Below, one piece after another: positions 1 through 20,489 of a DNA stretch of 64,000 nucleotides (position 1 is the stretch's first letter; each line of letters begins with the position of its first letter). Both the position numbers and the translations under genes were made by a program. Under the pieces are notes generated by a model. It worked only from the letters and a program-made list of their open reading frames with translations. It had not been told where the DNA came from and ran no database searches. The DNA comes from an uncultured Planctomycetia bacterium (GTDB lineage: Bacteria; Omnitrophota; Gorgyraeia; 1-14-0-20-64-10): positions 333,888 through 397,887 of the forward strand of contig CAYJVR010000001.1 in NCBI GenBank assembly GCA_964373715.1, written 5' to 3'.

Positions 1-451
1 TCCCGAGCGCGGCGATCTTACTCCAGAGCGGAGCGTCGTTGTAGTCCCAGGAGCTGAGCTTGTACGCCTCGAGCCCGAGTTTCTCCGCCCAGAGGATGCC
101 GGTCGGCGAATTCACGGTGGAGAAGAGGATCACCCCTTTCTTGTCGGCGTAGATTTTGATCTCCTGCCACTGCTCGAAGCTGAACCGGAGCCGGCTGAGC
201 ATCTTGTACATGTTCTCGGACTTGGGGCCGTCCACCGTCTCGTAATTGTAGACGACCGTCTTGTCACTCATGATCTCGTCCGGGAACCAGAAGATCAGTT
301 TGATCGCGTCGGCCCCCGCTTCCCGGACCGCGTCAATCAGCTCCTTCGTGATCGTCATGTCGTAGTTGCAGGTGACGCCGCATTCGGCCATCACGAACAG
401 GGGCCTTTCCTCCCCGATCACCCTGTCCCGTATCGTGATCTGGGGCCTCAT
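1..451 (-). CDS. N-acetylneuraminate/pseudaminate synthase family (NeuB/PseI-like), N-terminal part; C-terminus runs off the window
   Basis: The reverse-strand translation from the ATG at 451..449 reads MRPQITIRDRVIGEERPLFVMAECGVTCNYDMTITKELIDAVREAGADAIKLIFW..., a typical NeuB N-terminal TIM-barrel core. The ATG overlaps the stop of the upstream gene (ATGA). Confidence 0.7.
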   Translation of the reverse strand, partial: MRPQITIRDRVIGEERPLFVMAECGVTCNYDMTITKELIDAVREAGADAIKLIFWFPDEIMSDKTVVYNYETVDGPKSENMYKMLSRLRFSFEQWQEIKIYADKKGVILFSTVNSPTGILWAEKLGLEAYKLSSWDYNDAPLWSKIAALG

Positions 452-2163
452 CGTTTCTTCTCCACACTTACGGGGACAGGGTCGTACTGCACGAGGAAAT
501 CCCCGACCGCCAGGTACGGCAGCTGGCTGGCCTCGAACGCCCTCAGAGCGTCCTCCGCGGTGCAGACGATCGGCTCCTCGTGCATGTTGTAGCTGGTGTT
601 GATCACGGAGGCCCTGCCGGTCAGTTCGCGGTACTCGGTCAGTATCCGGTGGAATTCCGGGTTATCTTCCCGGGAGACCACCTGCGGTCTCGCGGTCCCG
701 TCAATGTGGATGGCGGCCGGAGCCTCCTGCATCATCAGCAGGGTGCAGGCGAACGTGGTGGTCATGTGGTGGGCCGGCAGTCTCGCTTTGGAGTAGCCGA
801 TGTACCGTTCTTCCGCGTGTTCAGCCAGCGTCGCAGGCGCGAAGGGCATGAACTCAGAGCGGTTGAGCCTCTTGTTCAGCCAGTCGTTAATCCCCGGCTC
901 CGTTGCCTGGCACAGGATGCTCCGGTTCCCCAGCGCGCGGGGGCCGAACTCCATTTTCCCGTCGAACCGGGCGACGATTTCCCCGTCGGCCAGGAGTTGC
1001 GCGATTTTCTGCTCGATCCGGTCCGGCATGTATTTGTATCGGAACCCGCCGCGCGCCAGAAGCCGTGAGATTTCCGCTTCGGTCTCCTCCGGTCCGAGGT
1101 AGAGGGTGGTGAGCGGGTCCGGCCTTGTCCCGGTTTTTTCAACGTGCGCAAGCCAGGCGGCCCCCACCGCGAGGCCGCCGTCCCCCATGTTAGGGAAAAC
1201 GAACAGCTCCCGGACGTTGGGAAGCTCACAGAGACGCTGGTTCAGCTTCACGTTGGCGAAGATGCCTCCGGCGACGGCGAGCTTCCCTCCGAACTCCCCG
1301 AGGTCGGCCGCCAGCGCGCAGACCACCTCTTCCAGCGTCTTCTGCGCGGAGGAAGCGATGTCCTCCCGGCTGAATTCCCGAACGAATGCTTTCAGCTCCG
1401 GGTTCTCGAACCTGGGCACGTACATCCCGTTTTCCATCCGGGAAACGAACCGTTTCTCTTGAGGGTCGTAATCCACCATTGCCCGGATGTTCGGATAGGA
1501 TTTCGGGTTCCGCACATGGGCCGCGAGACCGAGCACCTTCCCTTCGTGCCGGTGCGGCATGAATCCGAGGGATTTTGTGATGCTGCCGTAGAAATAGCCG
1601 AGCGAATCAATCGTGCTGGACCGGTTGATGAAGTTCATCTTTCCGCGCGAGCATTCCCAGAGAGAGGAGGATCCGTCCTCCCCCCACCCGTCTGCGGTCA
1701 GTACCATGCACTCCGCCCAGCCTGAGCCGTAATAGGCGGATGCCGCGTGCGATTCGTGGTGGCCGAAGACCATCACCGGCCTGCCGAGGGATCGGATCTC
1801 CTCCAGGTATTTCGGGGTCCGGGTGCCGAGCACCATCCGCTCATGTTCGAGCCTTGATCGCAGATGGCCTATCTGCATCTGCTTCTTTTCGGGGGAGAGG
1901 GAGGAGTTCAGGATCGCCTCCTCCGCTTCCTGGAACGGTTTCGGGTCCGGGGACTCCGGCGCTGCCCCGTGCGTGGCCACCAGGTCAATCTGGTCGAGCG
2001 TCAGGCCGGCCATCTCCAGCACCTTCCGGATAGAGGCCTGCGGGACCCCGTTCCAGAGCTTCACCCGGTTGAGCCGTTCTTCGCTTACCGCGCAGAGCAG
2101 TTTGCCGTTGGCGATGATGCAGGCCGACGCGTCGGCCAGAAAAGAGATCCCGAGAATTTTCAT
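448..2163 (-). CDS. NodU/CmcH-family O-carbamoyltransferase
   Basis: 571 aa. The N-terminus MKILGISFLADASACII...GKLLCAVSEERLNRVK and the overall architecture match the NodU/CmcH (HypF-like) carbamoyltransferase family. Confidence 0.75.
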   Translation of the reverse strand: MKILGISFLADASACIIANGKLLCAVSEERLNRVKLWNGVPQASIRKVLEMAGLTLDQIDLVATHGAAPESPDPKPFQEAEEAILNSSLSPEKKQMQIGHLRSRLEHERMVLGTRTPKYLEEIRSLGRPVMVFGHHESHAASAYYGSGWAECMVLTADGWGEDGSSSLWECSRGKMNFINRSSTIDSLGYFYGSITKSLGFMPHRHEGKVLGLAAHVRNPKSYPNIRAMVDYDPQEKRFVSRMENGMYVPRFENPELKAFVREFSREDIASSAQKTLEEVVCALAADLGEFGGKLAVAGGIFANVKLNQRLCELPNVRELFVFPNMGDGGLAVGAAWLAHVEKTGTRPDPLTTLYLGPEETEAEISRLLARGGFRYKYMPDRIEQKIAQLLADGEIVARFDGKMEFGPRALGNRSILCQATEPGINDWLNKRLNRSEFMPFAPATLAEHAEERYIGYSKARLPAHHMTTTFACTLLMMQEAPAAIHIDGTARPQVVSREDNPEFHRILTEYRELTGRASVINTSYNMHEEPIVCTAEDALRAFEASQLPYLAVGDFLVQYDPVPVSVEKKR

Positions 2164-3083
2164 GGTATTTCCACCGTTTGCCTCAGCGCGTGGAACGCGC
2201 GGAGTCCATCAATGAGGTTGGGTAGCGGCCGGCACAGGACCCTCTGCGCTTTGGCGACCGACAAGGTGACGTTGAGCGGCCGCTTGACCTTAAGTTTGGC
2301 GGCGTGGTTCTCCACCGGTACCACCAGGTTTTCCGGGTAGCCGAACAGGGAGGCCAGCTGCCTGGCGAATTCGTACTTTGAGCAGCCCTCCGATCCGGCC
2401 AGGTGCAGCACGCCGGCGGAATCCCCTTCCGCCACGTCGAGCAGAAGCTGCGCCAGGTGGTTCGAGGAGATCGGTGAAAAAAAGAGGTCCACGAATCCTT
2501 TAAAGGGTTTCCCCTCTTGGAGAGAGTTAAGGATCCACTCCGCGAGGCTGTTGTTGTCGGGCAGAATATTCCACCCGTAAAAGGCGGTCCGGATGATCGA
2601 AGCGTCCGGGCGGCTCTTTAGGATAGCTCTTTCTGCTTCGAGTTTTGTCCTGCCGTACATGTGCAGAGGTGCCGTTGGGTCCCCTTCGCAGTAATTTCCC
2701 TTTTTTCCATCGAATACGGAGTCGGTCGAGATGAAGATGAAGCGGCACCTCCGGCCGGCGAGCGCCTTGAGCAGATGGACTGTGCTTCCAACGTTGACGG
2801 CGGCGGCCGCCTCAGGTTCGGATTCGCAGCGGTCAACCGAGGTGATCGCCGCCGCGTGAATCAGGATGTCGGGCCGGAACGTTTCGATCAGCGAGAAGAC
2901 GGCGGCGGGATCCGACACGTCGGCCGCCAGCGTGTCGCACGGTACGGAGGCCTTTTCCGGGTGCCTGGCCACTCCGAGCGTCAGGTGCTCTCTCAAGGAG
3001 GCTTCACGCGCCAGCGCGCTGCCCAGCAAACCGGTGATGCCGGTGACGAGGAGTTTTTTACGGTGCGGAGCCGTGACGCTCAT
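2160..3083 (-). CDS. NAD(P)-dependent sugar reductase, RmlD substrate-binding type (dTDP-4-dehydrorhamnose reductase-like)
   Basis: 307 aa. Carries the N-terminal Rossmann motif LLVTGITGLLGSAL, the YGRTK catalytic motif and an RmlD-like C-terminal half. It overlaps the neighbouring gene by 4 nt. Confidence 0.6.
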   Translation of the reverse strand: MSVTAPHRKKLLVTGITGLLGSALAREASLREHLTLGVARHPEKASVPCDTLAADVSDPAAVFSLIETFRPDILIHAAAITSVDRCESEPEAAAAVNVGSTVHLLKALAGRRCRFIFISTDSVFDGKKGNYCEGDPTAPLHMYGRTKLEAERAILKSRPDASIIRTAFYGWNILPDNNSLAEWILNSLQEGKPFKGFVDLFFSPISSNHLAQLLLDVAEGDSAGVLHLAGSEGCSKYEFARQLASLFGYPENLVVPVENHAAKLKVKRPLNVTLSVAKAQRVLCRPLPNLIDGLRAFHALRQTVEIP

Positions 3084-4114
3084 CCTGTTCTCGCCTCCTG
3101 CTCGGGCTTAAGAAAGGGGGCCAGCCGGACGGACAACCGTTCCGTGCCCCGTCCGTCCACGAGCCGCCGGCCGGCCGATCCGAGTGCGGCCCGTTCCCAG
3201 GAGTTTTTGGAGAGGCGGAGGATCGTTTCGTTCAACCGGCCGGTAAAATCTTCGGCGTCCGGTTTGCCCAGATTGATGAGACAGCCCGCTTCTTCCAGTC
3301 CCTGGAGATTCACGGACTGGTTTTCCGCCATCAGGAGGCCTATGGCCGGGGTGGCTGTGGCCGCCAGTTCATAGCAGGTCTGGCCTCCCGCGCTGATGGC
3401 CAGATCGGCCGCCAGCATAAGAGAGCGCAGATTTTCCGGGTCGGTATAAAGGGAGACCCTTTCGGGCGGAATATTTCCGGTGAAAGGGTTTTCCCCGAGA
3501 GGGCCTGAGATGAGGTCAATCCGGATTTCTGGAAAAGCGCGGAGAACTCCTCCGGCCAGCCGGGAAGCTAGCGCACTCCCGTTGCCTCCTCCGGTCATCA
3601 GCAGAAGACGGCGTACGGGGCCGGAAGGTTCCCGCCGGTCCGGCGCGGCGGCGAACACGGCTCTGAGCAGTATAAAGTCGGGGCCGAGCAGGAAAAGGGT
3701 GTCCGGCTTTCCTCTATACGTGAGTTTCTGGGCTCCGGCGGATCCGTTGGAGACCATTTCCACCGGAAAGAGGCCTCTTTCCCCGGTGTCATCCAGGCAG
3801 AGAGTGGGCGTTCGGCGTGAGAGTTGGCTCATCCGGTCGGAGCCGATTTCCGGGTCGTCGAGAATGCAGAGAGAGGTTTCCGGTCCCGCGTTCAGCAGCT
3901 GGATTGTCGCCTCCAGTCCGAGAGAATCAGGTTCTGTTTCTGATTCAAACCCGGCTTTCCTGAGAATGGCGGAGGCTTCGGCGCCGAAGACGGCGAACCG
4001 GACAACCGTTCCCTTCCCTCTGAGGTGGTCGGCCAGCGTCCAGCACCGGCGCAGATGCCCGAAACCGACAGCCGGACTTCCGGCTGTCCGGATCACAACG
4101 GCCGGCCCTTTCAT
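3080..4114 (-). CDS. PseG-like UDP-sugar hydrolase (GT28 C-terminal-domain family; pseudaminic acid pathway)
   Basis: 344 aa. VVIRTAGSPAVGFGHLRRCWTLADHL matches the PseG/SpsG signature (GxGHxxRC) and the fold is two-domain GT-B-like. Confidence 0.55.
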   Translation of the reverse strand: MKGPAVVIRTAGSPAVGFGHLRRCWTLADHLRGKGTVVRFAVFGAEASAILRKAGFESETEPDSLGLEATIQLLNAGPETSLCILDDPEIGSDRMSQLSRRTPTLCLDDTGERGLFPVEMVSNGSAGAQKLTYRGKPDTLFLLGPDFILLRAVFAAAPDRREPSGPVRRLLLMTGGGNGSALASRLAGGVLRAFPEIRIDLISGPLGENPFTGNIPPERVSLYTDPENLRSLMLAADLAISAGGQTCYELAATATPAIGLLMAENQSVNLQGLEEAGCLINLGKPDAEDFTGRLNETILRLSKNSWERAALGSAGRRLVDGRGTERLSVRLAPFLKPEQEARTG

Positions 4115-4764
4115 GAGAGGGCCCTCTGTCCGGTTGTTTCGGCGAAATCGGGAAGAACCGCCCGGATGTGGGCTCCGTTCTGTTCGATCACGAGGATTTT
4201 TTCCTTGGGGATTTCGAATTCCCGCAGGCGATTATGGAGTGTTTCCCAGTCCTTGTGGAGAGAGCTGATGATGCCGCAGTCGAAAGAGAGGCCGTTTAGT
4301 TTTTCCATCGGGATTACCGGCAGTCCCAGAAAAGTTTCTCCAGCGGCGGCGTCATCCACGAGGCAAATAAGCTGGAGGCCCGCTTCTTTCACGGAGAGGT
4401 AGGTGATTTCAGCCAGTTCCCCCCGTCCGAAAAAGAGGATATTTTTCCCGCCCTTTTGCGCCACTTTCCCGAGCGTTTCTTTCAGTATCTGGCGCACCGA
4501 CCGGTAGAGATGGAGCGAGTATTCCAGATATTCGTGGGTAAGCCGGGTTTTTTCCGCAACCCCCTTCGGAGTCAAGAGATAGTGAATACGGTTTTTTTGG
4601 GCGTTGACAATCTTCAGATACCCCTTATTAACGCACCGGCGGATCATGAGGTTGGTCAAACCGAGAGCCACCCCCATTTTTTTGGAGAGGTGTCTCTGCG
4701 TGGGGGAAGAGTCGTTCGTCAGCTCTTCCAGGACTTTCAGCTCGCGGTAAGATTCGGTTTTCAT
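4111..4764 (-). CDS. Transcriptional regulator: N-terminal winged HTH plus C-terminal Rossmann-like ligand-binding domain (Rex-like/NeuD-N-like)
   Basis: 217 aa. The N-terminal half is wHTH-like (…LSKKMGVALGLTNLMIRRCVNKGYLKI…HYLLTPKGV…). The C-terminal half reads NILFFGRGELAEI…LICLVDD…GLPVIPMEKL, which resembles the Rex NAD-binding domain or the PglD/NeuD N-domain but has a degenerate GxGxxA motif. Confidence 0.5.
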   Translation of the reverse strand: MKTESYRELKVLEELTNDSSPTQRHLSKKMGVALGLTNLMIRRCVNKGYLKIVNAQKNRIHYLLTPKGVAEKTRLTHEYLEYSLHLYRSVRQILKETLGKVAQKGGKNILFFGRGELAEITYLSVKEAGLQLICLVDDAAAGETFLGLPVIPMEKLNGLSFDCGIISSLHKDWETLHNRLREFEIPKEKILVIEQNGAHIRAVLPDFAETTGQRALS

Positions 4765-4808
4765 TCGAAAGGGCTGATTTTTGGGTAAAAGGACGGCACC
4801 TCTATCAT

Positions 4809-4823
4809 GTTCATTTCATGAAC
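4809..4823. promoter_or_regulatory. Perfect 6-bp inverted repeat GTTCAT-TTC-ATGAAC in the 94-bp spacer upstream of the wHTH regulator gene; candidate operator
   Basis: Read directly: gttcatttcatgaac at 4809-4823. It lies in an AT-richer spacer between the regulator start at 4764 and the 3' end of the GT2 pseudogene at 4859. Confidence 0.35.
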
Positions 4824-4858
4824 GTACAATGTCTGCCGCCCGGTGTCAAGGATGAAAA

Positions 4859-5373
4859 TTATCGGAAAAAGCGCTGAAGCCAGTCTTTGAAGGCGTAATT
4901 GAGGATGGCAAATCCGTAACGGACCGAGGGCACTTTCGAACTGGCGTTCGGGTTATAGTAAGTGCCCGCCGGGACCTCCACGATTTTCAGTCCCGCCCGG
5001 TGGCAGGCCACGATGAACTCGGTGTCAAACAGGTACCAATTTCCGATCTGCTCGAAGGGAACCTTTTTCAGAGCCTCTTTGGAGATTGCGCGGAATCCGC
5101 TGTGGAAATCCATAAAGTTCATCCCAAGCAGGAGGTTCTGGATTGATGAAGGTTTTTTTGCGCCCCGCCGTACCCTTTGTTCTGGGCATGGCGGAGCAGA
5201 ATCGTGCGAGGGAGGGAGGTAACGATCTCCGTGGTATTGTCAGAACTGCCGTCATCCAGTACTGCGATTTCATCCACCGGAGGGCACGGGATCTGCGAAA
5301 GAACCTCCCGGATGGTCCGGGAGGCGTTATACGCGGGGATGAGGGCCAGAACCTTCGGCGGTCCGTTCGGCAC
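4859..5373 (-). pseudogene. Decayed GT2 (DPM1-like polyprenyl-phosphate sugar synthase) paralogue, frameshifted and internally deleted
   Basis: Two adjacent ORFs in different frames. 5119..5373 encodes the GT2 N-terminus VLALIPAYNASRTIREV…VLDDGSSDNT…NKGYGGAQK. 4859..5122 encodes the GT2 C-terminus …FHSGFRAISKEAL…. Both align to the intact GT2 at 10527..11318. About 60 aa, including the DxD region, are missing between GYGG and SGFR. Confidence 0.65.
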
Positions 5374-5769
5374 TTAAGGGTCGGAGAATGTGTCCGGGTC
5401 CCGGGGGTCGAATGCTTCGGACACGTAGGCCACGACAAAAGACTCCTCCGGTCCCAGGGTTGTGAACGTATGCGAGGTTCCGGGAGGGACGAAGATCTTC
5501 TGAGCCGAGGTGTTTCCGTCAATGAGATATTCCTCTGTTTGTCCGGAGGAGAGGTCCTTGAGGATTATTTTGACCTTTCCCTTGAGCACGCAGAACCACT
5601 CCGATTTTCTCTTGTGGTAATGATGTCCTCGGACAGTGCCCGGTCTGGAATGGAATCCGTAGACGAGCCCTTTCGGCAGTTCCCGGCAGAAGATCTCCGT
5701 GAGCCAGCCGCGTTCGTCTGTTTTTCGTTCGATAGGCGAGAGTTTTTCGTTTGCCGGTGCCGGCGGCAT
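5374..5769 (-). CDS. Small cupin, WxcM/FdtA-like sugar 3,4-ketoisomerase family
   Basis: The probable start is M at 5769..5767 (MPPAPANEKLSPIERKTDERGWLTEIF…GTVRGHHYHK…FCVLKGK), which overlaps the PseB-like stop by 1 nt. The longer ORF-track form would overlap the upstream gene by 100 nt. Confidence 0.5.
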   Translation of the reverse strand: MPPAPANEKLSPIERKTDERGWLTEIFCRELPKGLVYGFHSRPGTVRGHHYHKRKSEWFCVLKGKVKIILKDLSSGQTEEYLIDGNTSAQKIFVPPGTSHTFTTLGPEESFVVAYVSEAFDPRDPDTFSDP

Positions 5770-6884
5770 CAGCTCAGCCCAAGCCACCGGTTTGCCGAAT
5801 AGATGTGCCGCAGCTGATCTTTGCTGAGCCGGCTGAGATACGGAGACGACGTGCGATCGGCATCGAGCCATCCCTCGGCCCGAAGCAGATGGGTGAAGTC
5901 GTCCGAGGAGAATCGCTTCGCGTTCTCAGAAGAGTACTCATCCGGTATGCCGCACCGATAGCTCTTGTACCGGGCGAGCAGCTTCGGGATCTCGACGAGC
6001 GGTAGGATAACGAAGAACTCTCCGATGTCAATCGAGCGTGTGGCTTCGTTCCGGGAGATGAGGAGCTCGTGGAGCTTCTCACCGGGCCGGATTCCGATCT
6101 TTTTTATCTCGATGGGTTTGCCCGGATTCAGATTTCGGCTCATCAGTTTCGCCAGATCCGATATCCGGATCGACTTCATTTTCAGGACGGCCGTTTCCCC
6201 TCCCAGGGCGATTGATTCCGCCTGAATGAGGGAGGCGATCGCCATACGCAGCGGGATGAAAAAGCGGGTCATCTCGGGGTCCGTGATGGTAATCTCTCCG
6301 AGCCGGAGGATTTGCTCCCTGAAGAGGGGGATGACGCTCCCGCTTGTCCCGATGACGTTGCCCGCCCTGTAGCAGGAAAACACGGTCGGCGCCAGGTTGT
6401 TCGCCGCCACAATCAGTTTTTCCGCGGCTAGCTTTGTGACGCCGTAAAGGTTCAGCGGGTCCACCCCTTTATCGCTGGAGACGTAGATGACCTTGTCCAC
6501 GCGGCAGCGGATGGTGGCGTTGATGACGTTCTGTGTTCCCGCGACGTTGGTCATCACCGTTTCCCAGGGGTTTTCCTCGCAGACGGGAACGTGTTTCAGC
6601 GCGGCGAGGTGAAAAACAAGATTTACTCCGCTCATTGCCAGGTCCAGCCGGGTATGGTCCCGCACATCTCCGATGATATAGCGCAGTGCCGGATGGTTTT
6701 CAAACCGGCGCTTCGATATCACCTGCTGGGTTTCGCCACGGCTGTAGATCCGGATTTCGGCCGGCCGGTGAGGAAGGATCTGGGAAACCAGCTCGGTGCC
6801 CCATGAGCCGGTTCCGCCGGTGATCAGGATGGTTTTTCCCCTGTACCTGGAGAGGGGCCGGTTTCCGTTTCTAGAATGTCTCAT
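5769..6884 (-). CDS. UDP-GlcNAc 4,6-dehydratase, PseB/FlaA1/CapD family
   Basis: 371 aa. Motifs TILITGGTGSWGTEL…LYGVTKLAAEKL match the polysaccharide biosynthesis protein CapD/PseB family. Confidence 0.65.
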   Translation of the reverse strand: MRHSRNGNRPLSRYRGKTILITGGTGSWGTELVSQILPHRPAEIRIYSRGETQQVISKRRFENHPALRYIIGDVRDHTRLDLAMSGVNLVFHLAALKHVPVCEENPWETVMTNVAGTQNVINATIRCRVDKVIYVSSDKGVDPLNLYGVTKLAAEKLIVAANNLAPTVFSCYRAGNVIGTSGSVIPLFREQILRLGEITITDPEMTRFFIPLRMAIASLIQAESIALGGETAVLKMKSIRISDLAKLMSRNLNPGKPIEIKKIGIRPGEKLHELLISRNEATRSIDIGEFFVILPLVEIPKLLARYKSYRCGIPDEYSSENAKRFSSDDFTHLLRAEGWLDADRTSSPYLSRLSKDQLRHIYSANRWLGLS

Positions 6885-17961: not shown

Positions 17962-19190
17962 GATCGGACAAGCTCTCTGTATAGCTTCTCGAACCGGCCG
18001 GTCTGGAGCCCTTCGCTGTATTCCCGTTCGCAGACCTCCCGGCATCTGAGTCCCATCCGTGTCCGCAGAGGGTCGTCCTCCAGCAGCAGCAGTATCCCTT
18101 TCGCCAGGTCCTCCGTGCTGCCCGGTGAAGCGGCGTACCCCGTTTCCATCTGGCGGACCGCTTCCGGGACCCCTCCGACTGCGAAGGAGACAACCGGCGT
18201 CCCGCAAGCCATGCTTTCCAGTATCCCGTTGGGCAAGTTATCCGCGAGCGTGGGGAGCACGAAGAGGTCGGCGGCCGAATAGGCGAGCGCCAGCGCGGCG
18301 TCGTTCGAGATGTTCCCAAAACACTTTACCTCGACCGGTGTTTCCGGCCGGAACGATTCCGCCCCTTCCCCCACGATGAAAAGGACCGTCTCTTTCAACG
18401 CCGGCACGATCATCGCCAGCGCTTCCTTCAGGTGTCCCGCCCCTTTCCGTTTGGACTGGATCGAGGGGGCGCTGAAGAGAATGACTTTCCGTCCGGGATC
18501 TATACCGAACTTTTTTTTCGCCTCGGGTTTCGCGGTTGGTGTGAAAACCTCGATGTCCAGGCCGTTCGGGATGAAGCGCAGATCAAACCCTCCGAGCAGA
18601 GGGCTTTGCTTTGCCAGTCCGGCGAGCCATTTCGAAGGACAGACGATCGTCAGCCTTGAACGACCGTAGATCTGTTTTTTTGTGTTCCACAGCAGGCGCG
18701 TGGTGTCCCGGGACAGCGAAGGATACTCCTCGGGGTGCGGGCAGCTGCCGCAGCCGGTCTTCCAGCGCTCACATTCGTAGGAGTATGAGCAGTGTCCGGT
18801 AAACGCCCACATGTCCGAGAGCCTCCAGACGACCGGTTTGCTGCGACTTAACGGCACAAGGGTTTTGTGGCTGAAATAGCCGCCGTGGGTGTTGAAGACC
18901 TGAATCAAATCGGCTTCCCTGACCCAGCGCATGCCGGGTATGAAGAGGGATGAGGGGTAGAAAAGGTAATGGAACCCGGCCCGATCAAAGAGAGAACCGG
19001 TGAACTGGTCGATCCGGCTTAAGCGCCCGCCGAGAACGCGCACATCCGGGTCGTCCAACGATTTGTGGCCGACCAGCATGCGGGAATCCACGCCGATTTT
19101 CTTCAGGCCCTTGTGCAGGCGGTAGGCCGCCCTCCCGGAACCGCCGGCATTGTCCCATGTGCTGATGTGGAGAACGCGCAGAGGTTTCAA
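17958..19190 (-). CDS. GT4 (GT-B) glycosyltransferase
   Basis: 410 aa. N-terminal MKPLRVLHISTWDNAGG and C-terminal …ADLFVLPTLADNLPNGILESMACGTPVVSFAVGG. Confidence 0.7.
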   Translation of the reverse strand: MKPLRVLHISTWDNAGGSGRAAYRLHKGLKKIGVDSRMLVGHKSLDDPDVRVLGGRLSRIDQFTGSLFDRAGFHYLFYPSSLFIPGMRWVREADLIQVFNTHGGYFSHKTLVPLSRSKPVVWRLSDMWAFTGHCSYSYECERWKTGCGSCPHPEEYPSLSRDTTRLLWNTKKQIYGRSRLTIVCPSKWLAGLAKQSPLLGGFDLRFIPNGLDIEVFTPTAKPEAKKKFGIDPGRKVILFSAPSIQSKRKGAGHLKEALAMIVPALKETVLFIVGEGAESFRPETPVEVKCFGNISNDAALALAYSAADLFVLPTLADNLPNGILESMACGTPVVSFAVGGVPEAVRQMETGYAASPGSTEDLAKGILLLLEDDPLRTRMGLRCREVCEREYSEGLQTGRFEKLYRELVRS

Positions 19191-19196
19191 CGGCAG

Positions 19197-20489
19197 TCAA
19201 GTTTTCGGGGCCAGCTCGGAACCGGCTGGCTGCCAGTCCCAGGAATGGGGCACGGCCACGCTTCCCCATGAGTTTCCGGATGGGAGAACCAAGAGACCGC
19301 TGGAGCCGTCGTCAATCACCGAGAACTGACCCGCTCTAGAAATCTGATCGGCAACCCCCTCCAGGCCCCGGTCTGTTTTCAGCGCGGCGGTAACCCAGTA
19401 CTTGCCGGGCAATAGAGGCAAGCTTTTGACGCGGCAGACAATCTGCCCTTTTGGCGCGATGTCTCGGAACGATCTAAGCTGGGACATCGCTGTTGTGCAG
19501 GAAAACACGTTGACGCCGCTGATATCCGTTATGCCAATCATCGCGATCAAGTGGGGGATCGAAACGTTTTCTCGGGCTTTATAACCGATGATGAACTCCG
19601 CTTGGTTACATGACCTGAGAAGCCCCGCTTCACCCCCCGGACCGGCCGCTTCAAAACTTGTCACGCGGACGTCTCCCGCTCCGATACGATCCTTCCGATC
19701 GGCCAGACAGCAGGCGCCGGGCATCATCTGTTCTTCGGCGTATTGTGTGTAAGCTTGTATGACCTCGTCCGGTTTCCCGATCGTGTGGATTCTGCCGCTT
19801 TGGAGCATCATTGCTTTGGAGCAGAACGATCGTACGGCGCTCATATTATGGCTGACGAAAAGGACCGTTCGGCCGCCCGAAGCGACTTCATCCATCTTAT
19901 TCAAACATTTTTCCTGGAACGCCATGTCTCCTACGGCAAGCACCTCGTCAATCAGGAAAATCTCCGGTTCCAAGTGCGCGGCGATTGCAAACGCCAGGCG
20001 GACCTGCATGCCGCTCGAGTAGCGCTTCATCGGAGTATCGATGAACATGCTGACGCCTGAAAAATCTACAATCTCATCGAACTTTCTGTTGATCTCGCGG
20101 CGGTTCATTCCCAAGATAGCGCCGGAAAGGTAAACATTGTCCCTGCCTGAGAGCTCGGGATGAAAACCTGTGCCGACCTCCAAAAGAGAGCCGACGCGGC
20201 CTCGGATAGAAACTTGCCCCTCGGTCGGCTCGGTGATTCTGGAAAGGATCTTCAGAAGTGTGGATTTTCCGGTGCCGTTTGTGCCGATGATACCCAGCAC
20301 CTCCCCCTTCTTCACATCGAACGTCACATCTCTCAGTGCCCAAATTCTCTGATCCACCGATTTGCCATTCCTCCGAAAGAATCCTGTCACGCCTTCGGAA
20401 ACGGTATCCCGGAGTGACTTGTACCTTTCCCGCGAGCCTATCCGGTATTGTTTGCCGAGCCCTTCGGATCGAATGACGATATCGCTCAT
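19197..20489 (-). CDS. wzt: Polysaccharide ABC exporter ATP-binding protein (Wzt/TagH family) with ~180-aa C-terminal extension (putative carbohydrate-binding domain)
   Basis: Start at MSDIVIRSEGLGKQY. Walker A GTNGTGKST, signature YSSGMQVRLAFA, Walker B/D-loop LIDEVLAVGD. The roughly 180 residues after the NBD are non-ABC, like the O-antigen-terminus-binding domain of Wzt. Confidence 0.75.
   Translation of the reverse strand: MSDIVIRSEGLGKQYRIGSRERYKSLRDTVSEGVTGFFRRNGKSVDQRIWALRDVTFDVKKGEVLGIIGTNGTGKSTLLKILSRITEPTEGQVSIRGRVGSLLEVGTGFHPELSGRDNVYLSGAILGMNRREINRKFDEIVDFSGVSMFIDTPMKRYSSGMQVRLAFAIAAHLEPEIFLIDEVLAVGDMAFQEKCLNKMDEVASGGRTVLFVSHNMSAVRSFCSKAMMLQSGRIHTIGKPDEVIQAYTQYAEEQMMPGACCLADRKDRIGAGDVRVTSFEAAGPGGEAGLLRSCNQAEFIIGYKARENVSIPHLIAMIGITDISGVNVFSCTTAMSQLRSFRDIAPKGQIVCRVKSLPLLPGKYWVTAALKTDRGLEGVADQISRAGQFSVIDDGSSGLLVLPSGNSWGSVAVPHSWDWQPAGSELAPKT

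Follow-up and report, generated by a model that had tools for sequence, protein, structure and literature searches.

A putative two-domain MarR-type regulator and its widely conserved predicted operator at the head of a nonulosonic-acid operon in an Omnitrophota bacterium

In a stretch of 64,000 nucleotides from an uncultured Planctomycetia bacterium placed by GTDB in the Omnitrophota (assembly GCA_964373715.1, contig CAYJVR010000001.1, positions 333,888 to 397,887; the whole stretch is called the window below), a gene at 4111..4764 encodes a protein of 217 residues. Judged by its sequence, the gene product is a one-component transcription factor and a two-domain relative of the TIGR04176 family. 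It is proposed that the protein is an autorepressor, a dimer of which would sit on a palindromic operator and block the promoter of its own operon, with a Rossmann-like C-terminal domain (C-domain) sensing a nucleotide-containing metabolite. A probability of about 70% is given to this reading as a whole, and its parts differ in strength. DNA binding at the operator is very likely on comparative grounds. The role of the C-domain as a sensor stands at roughly even odds and is drawn from a conserved glycine-rich loop, the fold family and fusions to nucleotidyltransferases.

How bacteria regulate surface-glycan and nonulosonic-acid synthesis is little known beyond a handful of model species, and for the Omnitrophota and the other uncultured carriers of this system there is no such knowledge. 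A concrete regulatory unit can now be offered. It consists of a defined protein, a predicted operator of 15-17 bp that is conserved in at least seven phyla, and a promoter of defined geometry. The deeply conserved operator and promoter geometry are the new elements, along with a candidate sensor domain for a nucleotide or nucleotide-sugar. By comparative genomics, a DNA target is apparently assigned for the first time to TIGR04176, an annotated but uncharacterised family. In the searchable literature on TIGR04176, PF22674/C2185-like proteins, the motif, and MarR proteins with exosortase/PEP-CTERM, no characterisation and no published operator were found. The features of the regulator and its upstream spacer are as follows.

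4111..4764, minus strand: regulator gene, 217 aa, with ATG at 4764 and TGA at 4111-4113
4570..4764, minus strand: MarR-type winged helix-turn-helix (wHTH), residues 1-65 (HTH_24, TIGR04176, Foldseek, conservation)
4456..4569, minus strand: single long helix, residues 66-103, 38 residues (AlphaFold2 secondary structure)
4150..4455, minus strand: compact Rossmann-like domain, residues 104-205 (AlphaFold2, Foldseek, conservation)
4765..4858: intergenic spacer of 94 bp with the putative promoter and operator, the most AT-rich gap of the window
4809..4823: predicted operator GTTCATTTCATGAAC, that is GTTCAT-TTC-ATGAAC, a perfect palindrome kept in orthologous loci
4821..4826, minus strand: putative -10 hexamer TACGTT, whose final GTT is the first three operator bases
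4844..4849, minus strand: putative -35 hexamer TTGACA, separated by 17 nt from TACGTT and by 20 nt from the operator, both downstream of it

An earlier note on this DNA, made from the letters alone, had drawn attention to an AT-rich spacer upstream of the gene and to a perfect inverted repeat within it as a plausible autoregulatory operator. Both are indeed present. The GC fraction is 0.457 in the spacer and 0.581 in the window as a whole, so that the spacer ranks within the bottom 2.6% of 94-bp windows. Among the gaps that measure 60 bp or more, of which there are only 7, it is the most AT-rich; the repeat lies at 4809-4823. The palindrome by itself is within chance, because 295 of 2000 shuffled spacers (15%) hold a perfect palindrome with 6-bp arms. 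What makes it significant is solely that other genomes conserve it. In the 64 kb of the window, GTTCATTTCATGAAC is the sole match to GTTCA-N5-TGAAC when up to 1 mismatch is allowed, and the further sites that had been envisaged before other genes are absent there.

Relatives of the regulator are encoded in 215 stretches of species-representative genomes, of which the best 80 were used for the gene-context work. Across 78 homologous loci (765 kb) of Omnitrophota, Planctomycetes, Desulfobacterales, Acidobacteriota, Nitrospirales and other groups, 88 perfect GTTCA-N5-TGAAC sites were counted, against 0.54 expected from base composition, an enrichment of more than 100-fold. As a control, 59 palindromes with permuted half-sites averaged 0.71 sites in the same loci, with a maximum of 5. 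A position within 300 nt upstream of the regulator ORF (open reading frame) was observed for 62 of the 88 sites, in 45 loci. Most of the others lie slightly further upstream, or seemingly inside ORFs whose called starts were over-extended. Where sites occur in tandem, they are 15 or 21-23 bp apart.

At the equivalent place, orthologues carry GTTCATAAAATGAAC (67% identity), GTTCATGCAGTGAAC (57%) and GTTCAGTCGATGAAC (~42-51%), with the surrounding DNA diverged. The family consensus is a-Y-GTTCA-N5-TGAAC-R, in which the half-sites are invariant, the five central bases are free and the flanks are Y/R-symmetric. The recurrence of the palindrome outside the window was thereby established in orthologous loci of many phyla, and the predicted site is kept in relatives across at least seven of them. 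Because the half-sites are invariant, the spacer is free and compensatory changes are not seen, the pattern indicates a protein-binding DNA site and not an RNA hairpin.

The site also leads back to the regulator. Metagenome contigs were scanned for the tandem motif alone (GTTCAN5TGAAC-N6-8-GTTCAN5TGAAC), and at least 120 loci were obtained. Among the matches listed, a regulator homologue stands directly downstream in the right orientation, usually 12-40 nt off, in 80 of 120 loci; 64 of these listed homologues are short (~100 aa, the N-terminal part only) and 15 are two-domain. All seven short relatives that were compared with TIGR04176 qualify as members (7/7, 125-148 bits). Because the tandem motif alone leads to bona fide members, the GTTCA-N5-TGAAC operator appears to be common to TIGR04176 as a whole, of which the window protein would then be a two-domain offshoot with the same DNA specificity. 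Examples of the short proteins behind tandem sites, among loci L088-L207, are L089:242-559, L166:8512-8808 and L094:325-651.

The remaining 40 of the 120 listed loci, such as L090, L101, L117, L134 and L147, have no MarR_EPS homologue nearby. Their neighbours are heterogeneous and partly phage- or plasmid-like, including DnaB, ParA/MipZ-like ATPases, endonuclease VII and phage proteins. A UDP-glucose dehydrogenase is the one sugar gene among them, and several of these loci carry two tandem pairs. A similar repeat may be in use by a mobile-element system unrelated to the regulator. Neither the 64-kb window nor these 40 homologue-free loci revealed a regulon wider than the operon of the regulator itself.

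The operator also stands at fixed distances from a -35 box in many loci. In gene orientation, the window reads TTGACA-ccgggcggcagacattg-TACGTTCATGAAATGAAC, with a perfect -35, a 17-nt spacer and a weak -10. TTGACA is found at equal distance in five relatives (L008, L010, L011, L033 and L039), and the TA(C/T)GTT junction likewise recurs in relatives. Among 60 loci with a site, 31 have a TTGACA-like box whose end precedes the first half-site by exactly 15 nt (25 loci) or ~20 nt (6 loci); any other offset occurs in 0-5 loci. It is from this conservation that the putative promoter TTGACA-17-TACGTT is inferred. The operator overlaps the -10/start region in both distance classes, and such a placement over the predicted -10 and start is a geometry typical of repression. 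Conservation in 78 loci, the fixed promoter position and the reverse search together back the earlier reading of the palindrome as an operator.

In Desulfobacterales loci, the promoter and operator were observed 350-1100 nt upstream of the regulator start (L083:5494-6000; L085, ~5422-6000; also L053, L057, L061 and L067). The interval in L083 holds only short ORFs (up to 48 aa), none of them on the regulator's strand, and may be a long leader.

The joining of a winged helix to a Rossmann-like domain, as first read from the letters, is confirmed by HTH_24 and TIGR04176 matches, by AlphaFold2 models and by Foldseek. The three peptides that had been quoted (NILFFGRGELAEI, LICLVDD and GLPVIPMEKL) are all present in the 217-residue translation of ORF 4111..4764, and the start agrees with the aligned N-terminus of the homologues, MKxxSYRELKVLEEL. 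The AlphaFold2 model of the full protein (pLDDT 83) places a winged helix at residues 3-64, a long helix at 66-103 and an alpha/beta domain at 108-203. The N-terminus matches Pfam HTH_24 (E 4.6e-7) and TIGR04176 (65.6 bits, E 3.4e-18; residues 7-96 align with positions 5-98 of the 105 in the model). As the latter alignment runs to residue 96, the long helix is also present in the short TIGR04176 proteins. In a Foldseek search with the full-length model, the N-domain matches MarR chains (TMt 0.45-0.50), including a MarR-operator DNA complex. With Pfam MarR (PF01047), the window protein scores 12.9 bits (E 0.11), under the cut-off of 24.6 bits that several homologues exceed (27.6-28.5 bits). A homologue search with the N-domain only returned 5 proteins, probably mostly truncated, and was uninformative.

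Conservation was read from an alignment of 42 homologues with 38-93% identity to the window protein. In the wHTH, T22, Q23, R24, A33, L34, G35, N38, R43, K47, G48, R59 and Y62 are invariant. The recognition-helix residues among them, A33, L34, G35, N38 and R43 (ALGLTN..R), are invariant across phyla, as is the operator half-site, and R59 and Y62 belong to the wing.

The closest described relatives are the members of TIGR04176, with which the window protein shares its N-terminal 96 residues in alignment, a polysaccharide locus and the GTTCA-N5-TGAAC target; this shared-operator criterion was derived in the present analysis and is not a published one. It differs from them in scoring under the 88-bit cut-off (65.6 bits) and in length, since the members are single-domain proteins of ~105 aa, whereas the window protein is twice as long and has an added Rossmann-like domain. 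The layout of winged helix, long helix and effector domain is also that of TrmB-type regulators. TrmBL2 is among the fold matches, and homologues weakly match PF01978 (E 0.012-0.12); the sugar-binding C-domain of TrmB, however, has another fold, and there is no significant sequence relationship. Foldseek with the full-length model further returned O-methyltransferases that combine a wHTH with a Rossmann domain (TM ~0.35, root-mean-square deviation (rmsd) 12-14). The resemblance is one of architecture only, and an O-methyltransferase identity is rejected, the C-domain being far too small and without a methyltransferase family match.

The C-domain, an alpha/beta unit of five to six strands in the full-length model, was also modelled alone (pLDDT 84.5). 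Its landmarks are G113-R-G-E116-L-A-E119, VDD (136-138), F145-L-G and D162. G113, E116, E119 and F145 are invariant, and at least 90% of the homologues retain G115, A118 and D162. The GRGELA glycine motif had been called degenerate. It is not so, as it forms part of a G-x-G-E-x-A-E (G-x-G-x-x-A) loop conserved across the family.

The comparison with known folds that the earlier note had called for brought up Rex-family, CoA-binding and Gfo/Idh/MocA chains in Foldseek. The top PDB match is 3wg9, the Rex-family repressor RSP (E 2.5e-4, TMq 0.56), and Bacillus subtilis Rex (2vt2) holds ranks 9-15. The tightest superposition is with CAC2185 of Clostridium acetobutylicum (2g6t; 88 columns, rmsd 2.0, TMq 0.66, 22% identity, E 3.2e-4), a PF22674 protein of unknown function that differs in its length of 306 aa, in the N-terminal position of the domain and in lacking a wHTH. 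The best mutual TM (0.67/0.61) is with 3nkl, the N-terminal domain of a CapD/PglF-type enzyme. Further matches are NAD(P) domains of Gfo/Idh/MocA proteins and the CoA-binding domain of succinyl-CoA synthetase. Profile matches are marginal (Rex 5zz5, E 0.086-0.16; PerB N-domain, E 0.23-0.4; 2g6t, E 1.1), and hhalign gives a probability of 47% for a CapD-like N-terminus.

The likeness to PglD/NeuD that had been suspected stands in part. The pattern hhhhGxGxxA ... hhDD ... G.PV is shared with the N-domains of PglD/NeuD/PerB (PF17836) and of CapD/PglF/WbpM, which occur in the same type of cluster, and the PerB N-domain gives a weak profile match (E 0.23); no PF17836 or hexapeptide match was found in the window protein. 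Unlike PglD/NeuD, it ends after the Rossmann-like domain, with no left-handed beta-helix acyltransferase domain. Unlike CapD/PglF/WbpM, it has no SDR catalytic domain, and the Rossmann-like domain is attached to a DNA-binding one.

The two-domain protein is widespread. Full-length homologues number 436 in a set of 5.8 billion proteins, the nearest named ones being from Candidatus Omnitrophota. A profile search with the C-domain gave 1319 cluster representatives at E <=1e-3 and 367 at 1e-10, most of them 190-235 aa long with the domain at ~residues 100-197. The best 80 loci come from Omnitrophota, Planctomycetes, Desulfobacterales, Acidobacteriota/Vicinamibacterales, Nitrospirales, Methylomirabilota, Rokubacteria and Acidimicrobiia. 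In these, the first two same-strand downstream ORFs encode mostly nucleotide-sugar enzymes, with SDR epimerases/dehydratases accounting for 23 of 115. The other classes are DegT aminotransferases, UDP-glucose/GDP-mannose dehydrogenases, nucleotidyltransferases, transaldolase-like proteins, Gfo/Idh/MocA oxidoreductases and glycosyltransferases. Because these predicted nucleotide-sugar and glycan enzymes are so varied, the family context is taken to be glycan clusters in general, beyond nonulosonic-acid clusters. The starting premise, by which a glycan locus would seldom have a regulator of its own, does not hold for this lineage, given relatives in 215 stretches and the nucleotide-sugar enzymes that mostly adjoin them in the 80 loci; TIGR04176 itself is named for its association with exopolysaccharide (EPS).

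Some relatives are fused to an enzyme. A wHTH, a Rossmann-like domain and an NTP_transferase domain (PF00483) stand in a single ORF in P0132, L051:5971-7404 and L055:4077-5534 (477-486 aa), and the same order is seen in P0126 (301 aa), which is apparently truncated. Such three-domain proteins are possible enzyme-regulators. In a different arrangement, the Rossmann-like domain is repeated in 3-4 tandem copies in P0135 (879 aa), P0174 (395 aa) and P0192 (423 aa), the first of which additionally has an N-terminal GT2 domain. The tandem-copy proteins weakly match GFO_IDH_MocA, CoA_binding, PglD_N and C2185-like_N, and PF02629 is matched at 8e-8 by tandem-repeat relatives of the C-domain.

It is rather unlikely that the C-domain is an oligomerisation or scaffold module, or an enzyme docking site, in a constitutive autorepressor that works like the short TIGR04176 proteins. 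The use of the same operator by the short one-domain relatives fits such a role. So does the finding that the C-domain has no significant sequence match to any ligand-binding family, and for the similar CapD/PglF-type N-terminal domain (3nkl) we know of no established ligand. However, among sequences from different phyla with an overall identity of 40%, G113, E116 and E119 do not vary and F145 and D162 are conserved, which exceeds the needs of a scaffold. The conserved positions, further, cluster at the place where a Rossmann fold binds its nucleotide.

A true Rex-type redox sensor, whose C-domain would bind NADH/NAD+ and tie glycan synthesis to the redox state, is unlikely. The likeness to Rex that was noted at the outset holds in fold and logic. 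Rex too has an N-terminal winged helix and a C-terminal Rossmann-type domain and acts as a repressor on a palindrome (here a predicted one). The Rex-family 3wg9 heads the C-domain matches, with B. subtilis Rex and the weak 5zz5 profile match behind it, and a G-x-G-x-x-A motif together with an acidic residue behind strand 2 (here D137/D138) is a classical dinucleotide-binding signature. Membership of the Rex family, however, does not hold. PF06971 is not matched at E <=10 by the window protein or by 5 homologues, and PF02629 finds no Pfam match in the window protein at E up to 10, although tandem-repeat relatives of its C-domain do match that model. The N-domain is of the MarR_EPS (TIGR04176) type and is followed by the 38-residue joining helix. 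The C-domain has a GxGExAE loop, is shorter than that of Rex and is modelled without the C-terminal swapped helix. The predicted operator is also its own: the Rex operator consensus is TTGTGAA-N4-TTCACAA, and the 64-kb window has no match to it with up to 2 mismatches. Rex belongs to the context of fermentation and respiration, whereas the context here is glycan synthesis, and nucleotide-sugar chemistry is what both this context and the fusions suggest.

The domain architecture, the fold relations, the conservation of the operator and of the -35 position, and the glycan context, all observed here, can be joined with the proposed autorepression as follows. Two copies of the protein would probably pair via helix 66-103, which is taken to be both a dimerisation and a linker element. 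The paired winged helices would read the two half-sites of a-Y-GTTCA-N5-TGAAC-R, whose centres are 10 bp apart, one turn of the DNA helix. From the geometry, the bound protein would cover the -10 and the likely transcription start and would thereby block RNA polymerase. Repression would fall on the regulator's own transcript, which is expected to continue by start/stop overlap into the nonulosonic-acid operon. Binding of a nucleotide-containing metabolite by the C-domain would then alter the affinity for DNA, in one direction or the other. From the context, a nucleotide-sugar or nucleotide would be the best fit, and the fusion of some relatives to a nucleotidyltransferase makes such a ligand plausible; possible, too, would be NAD(P)(H) or a CoA compound.

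That the protein activates this promoter, or that the real promoter lies elsewhere, is quite improbable. The -10 is weak, as is typical of activator-dependent promoters, and some MarR-family proteins are activators. Against this, in many phyla a near-perfect -35 keeps a fixed distance to the operator, which overlaps the -10/start region, and second sites sit downstream of the first, towards the gene. As for a chance palindrome or a leader RNA hairpin, the 15% of shuffled spacers with a perfect 6-bp-arm palindrome would allow for it, but it is effectively refuted by the more than 100-fold enrichment in 78 loci, by invariant half-sites around a free spacer with no compensatory changes, and by the regulator gene being predicted from the operator alone in 80 of 120 loci among the matches listed.

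Several observations weigh against an autorepressor with a sensing C-domain. A single operator is found here, whereas many relatives carry two. A consensus promoter scan of the window did not report the proposed promoter, because TACGTT matches just 3 of 6 positions of the -10. No terminator was found between the upstream co-directional genes and the regulator operon, so that read-through from those genes may bypass the operator. As to the C-domain, every sequence-level match to ligand-binding families is marginal (E 0.09-1.1), and the Foldseek support is modest (E 2.5e-4, TM 0.56-0.67). A Pfam scan of it with version.2 of the PF22674 model gave nothing even at E 10. A precomputed match to PF22674 (C2185-like_N, model version.3) is recorded for the window protein at E <=1e-5, and the disagreement of the two annotations looks like a model-version discrepancy. 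Further, the C-domain would not be required for DNA recognition, because short TIGR04176 proteins use the same operator without it, and its role could be structural.

A more specific form of the proposal would make the C-domain a dedicated sensor of a nucleotide-sugar or activated nonulosonate, that is, a UDP- or CMP-linked intermediate or end product of the pathway. This is tentative and rather doubtful. If true, it would define an undescribed class of nucleotide-sugar-responsive repressors exerting direct feedback on surface-glycan synthesis in many phyla, most of them uncultured. On this reading, the wHTH-sensor-nucleotidyltransferase fusions would work as enzyme-regulators, and one universal operator, a-Y-GTTCA-N5-TGAAC-R, would serve the whole TIGR04176 family. 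A C-domain that senses a nucleotide-sugar would also be a compact new sensor module, useful for the understanding of glycan feedback and as a biosensor part.

The genes that would come under this control follow the regulator on the same strand.

3080..4114, minus strand: PseG-like UDP-sugar hydrolase or GT28-like protein (TIGR03590, 119 bits, under the cut-off of 153; Glyco_tran_28_C)
2160-3083, minus strand: RmlD-like reductase, the second gene downstream (family matches)
448-2163, minus strand: carbamoyltransferase, the third gene downstream (family matches)

The first of these is translationally coupled to the regulator, whose TGA overlaps its ATG as ATGA at 4111-4114. The same DNA in the public assembly (L001) reaches past the window edge, and the further genes of the operon seen there encode NeuB, a CMP-sugar synthetase (CTP_transf_3), a Gfo/Idh/MocA protein, a GNAT, an aminotransferase and a second NeuB. 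By these family matches, the operon behind the regulator is predicted to be a nonulosonic-acid pathway of the pseudaminic/legionaminic type. The two genes for NeuB-type nonulosonate synthases (L001:13579-14622 and 18302-19405) suggest a duplicated step or two related nonulosonic-acid products.

Elsewhere in the window, family matches identify a PseB-like dehydratase, DegT proteins and glycosyltransferases. All ORFs of the 64-kb gene array are on the minus strand, and nearly all belong to nucleotide-sugar or glycan synthesis; the whole window forms a single, very long glycan supercluster with co-directional genes. An Rfam scan of the 64 kb gave no match at gathering thresholds. Between the cupin gene and the spacer, at 4859-5373, there is an ORF of 87 aa (4859-5122) with no family match, followed by a 251-bp stretch without a clean ORF, and this segment could be an unrecognised small gene or a decayed gene. 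In several other Omnitrophota loci, a membrane-anchored protein of ~245-280 aa with no Pfam family is encoded directly downstream of the regulator (L004:8761-9498, which equals L011 6659-7495; L010:6633-7373; L013:1883-2716). It carries the conserved stretch TKQGVNFQV...PEGWPV(I/V)DDH(I/V)...H(I/V)IIRGHG.

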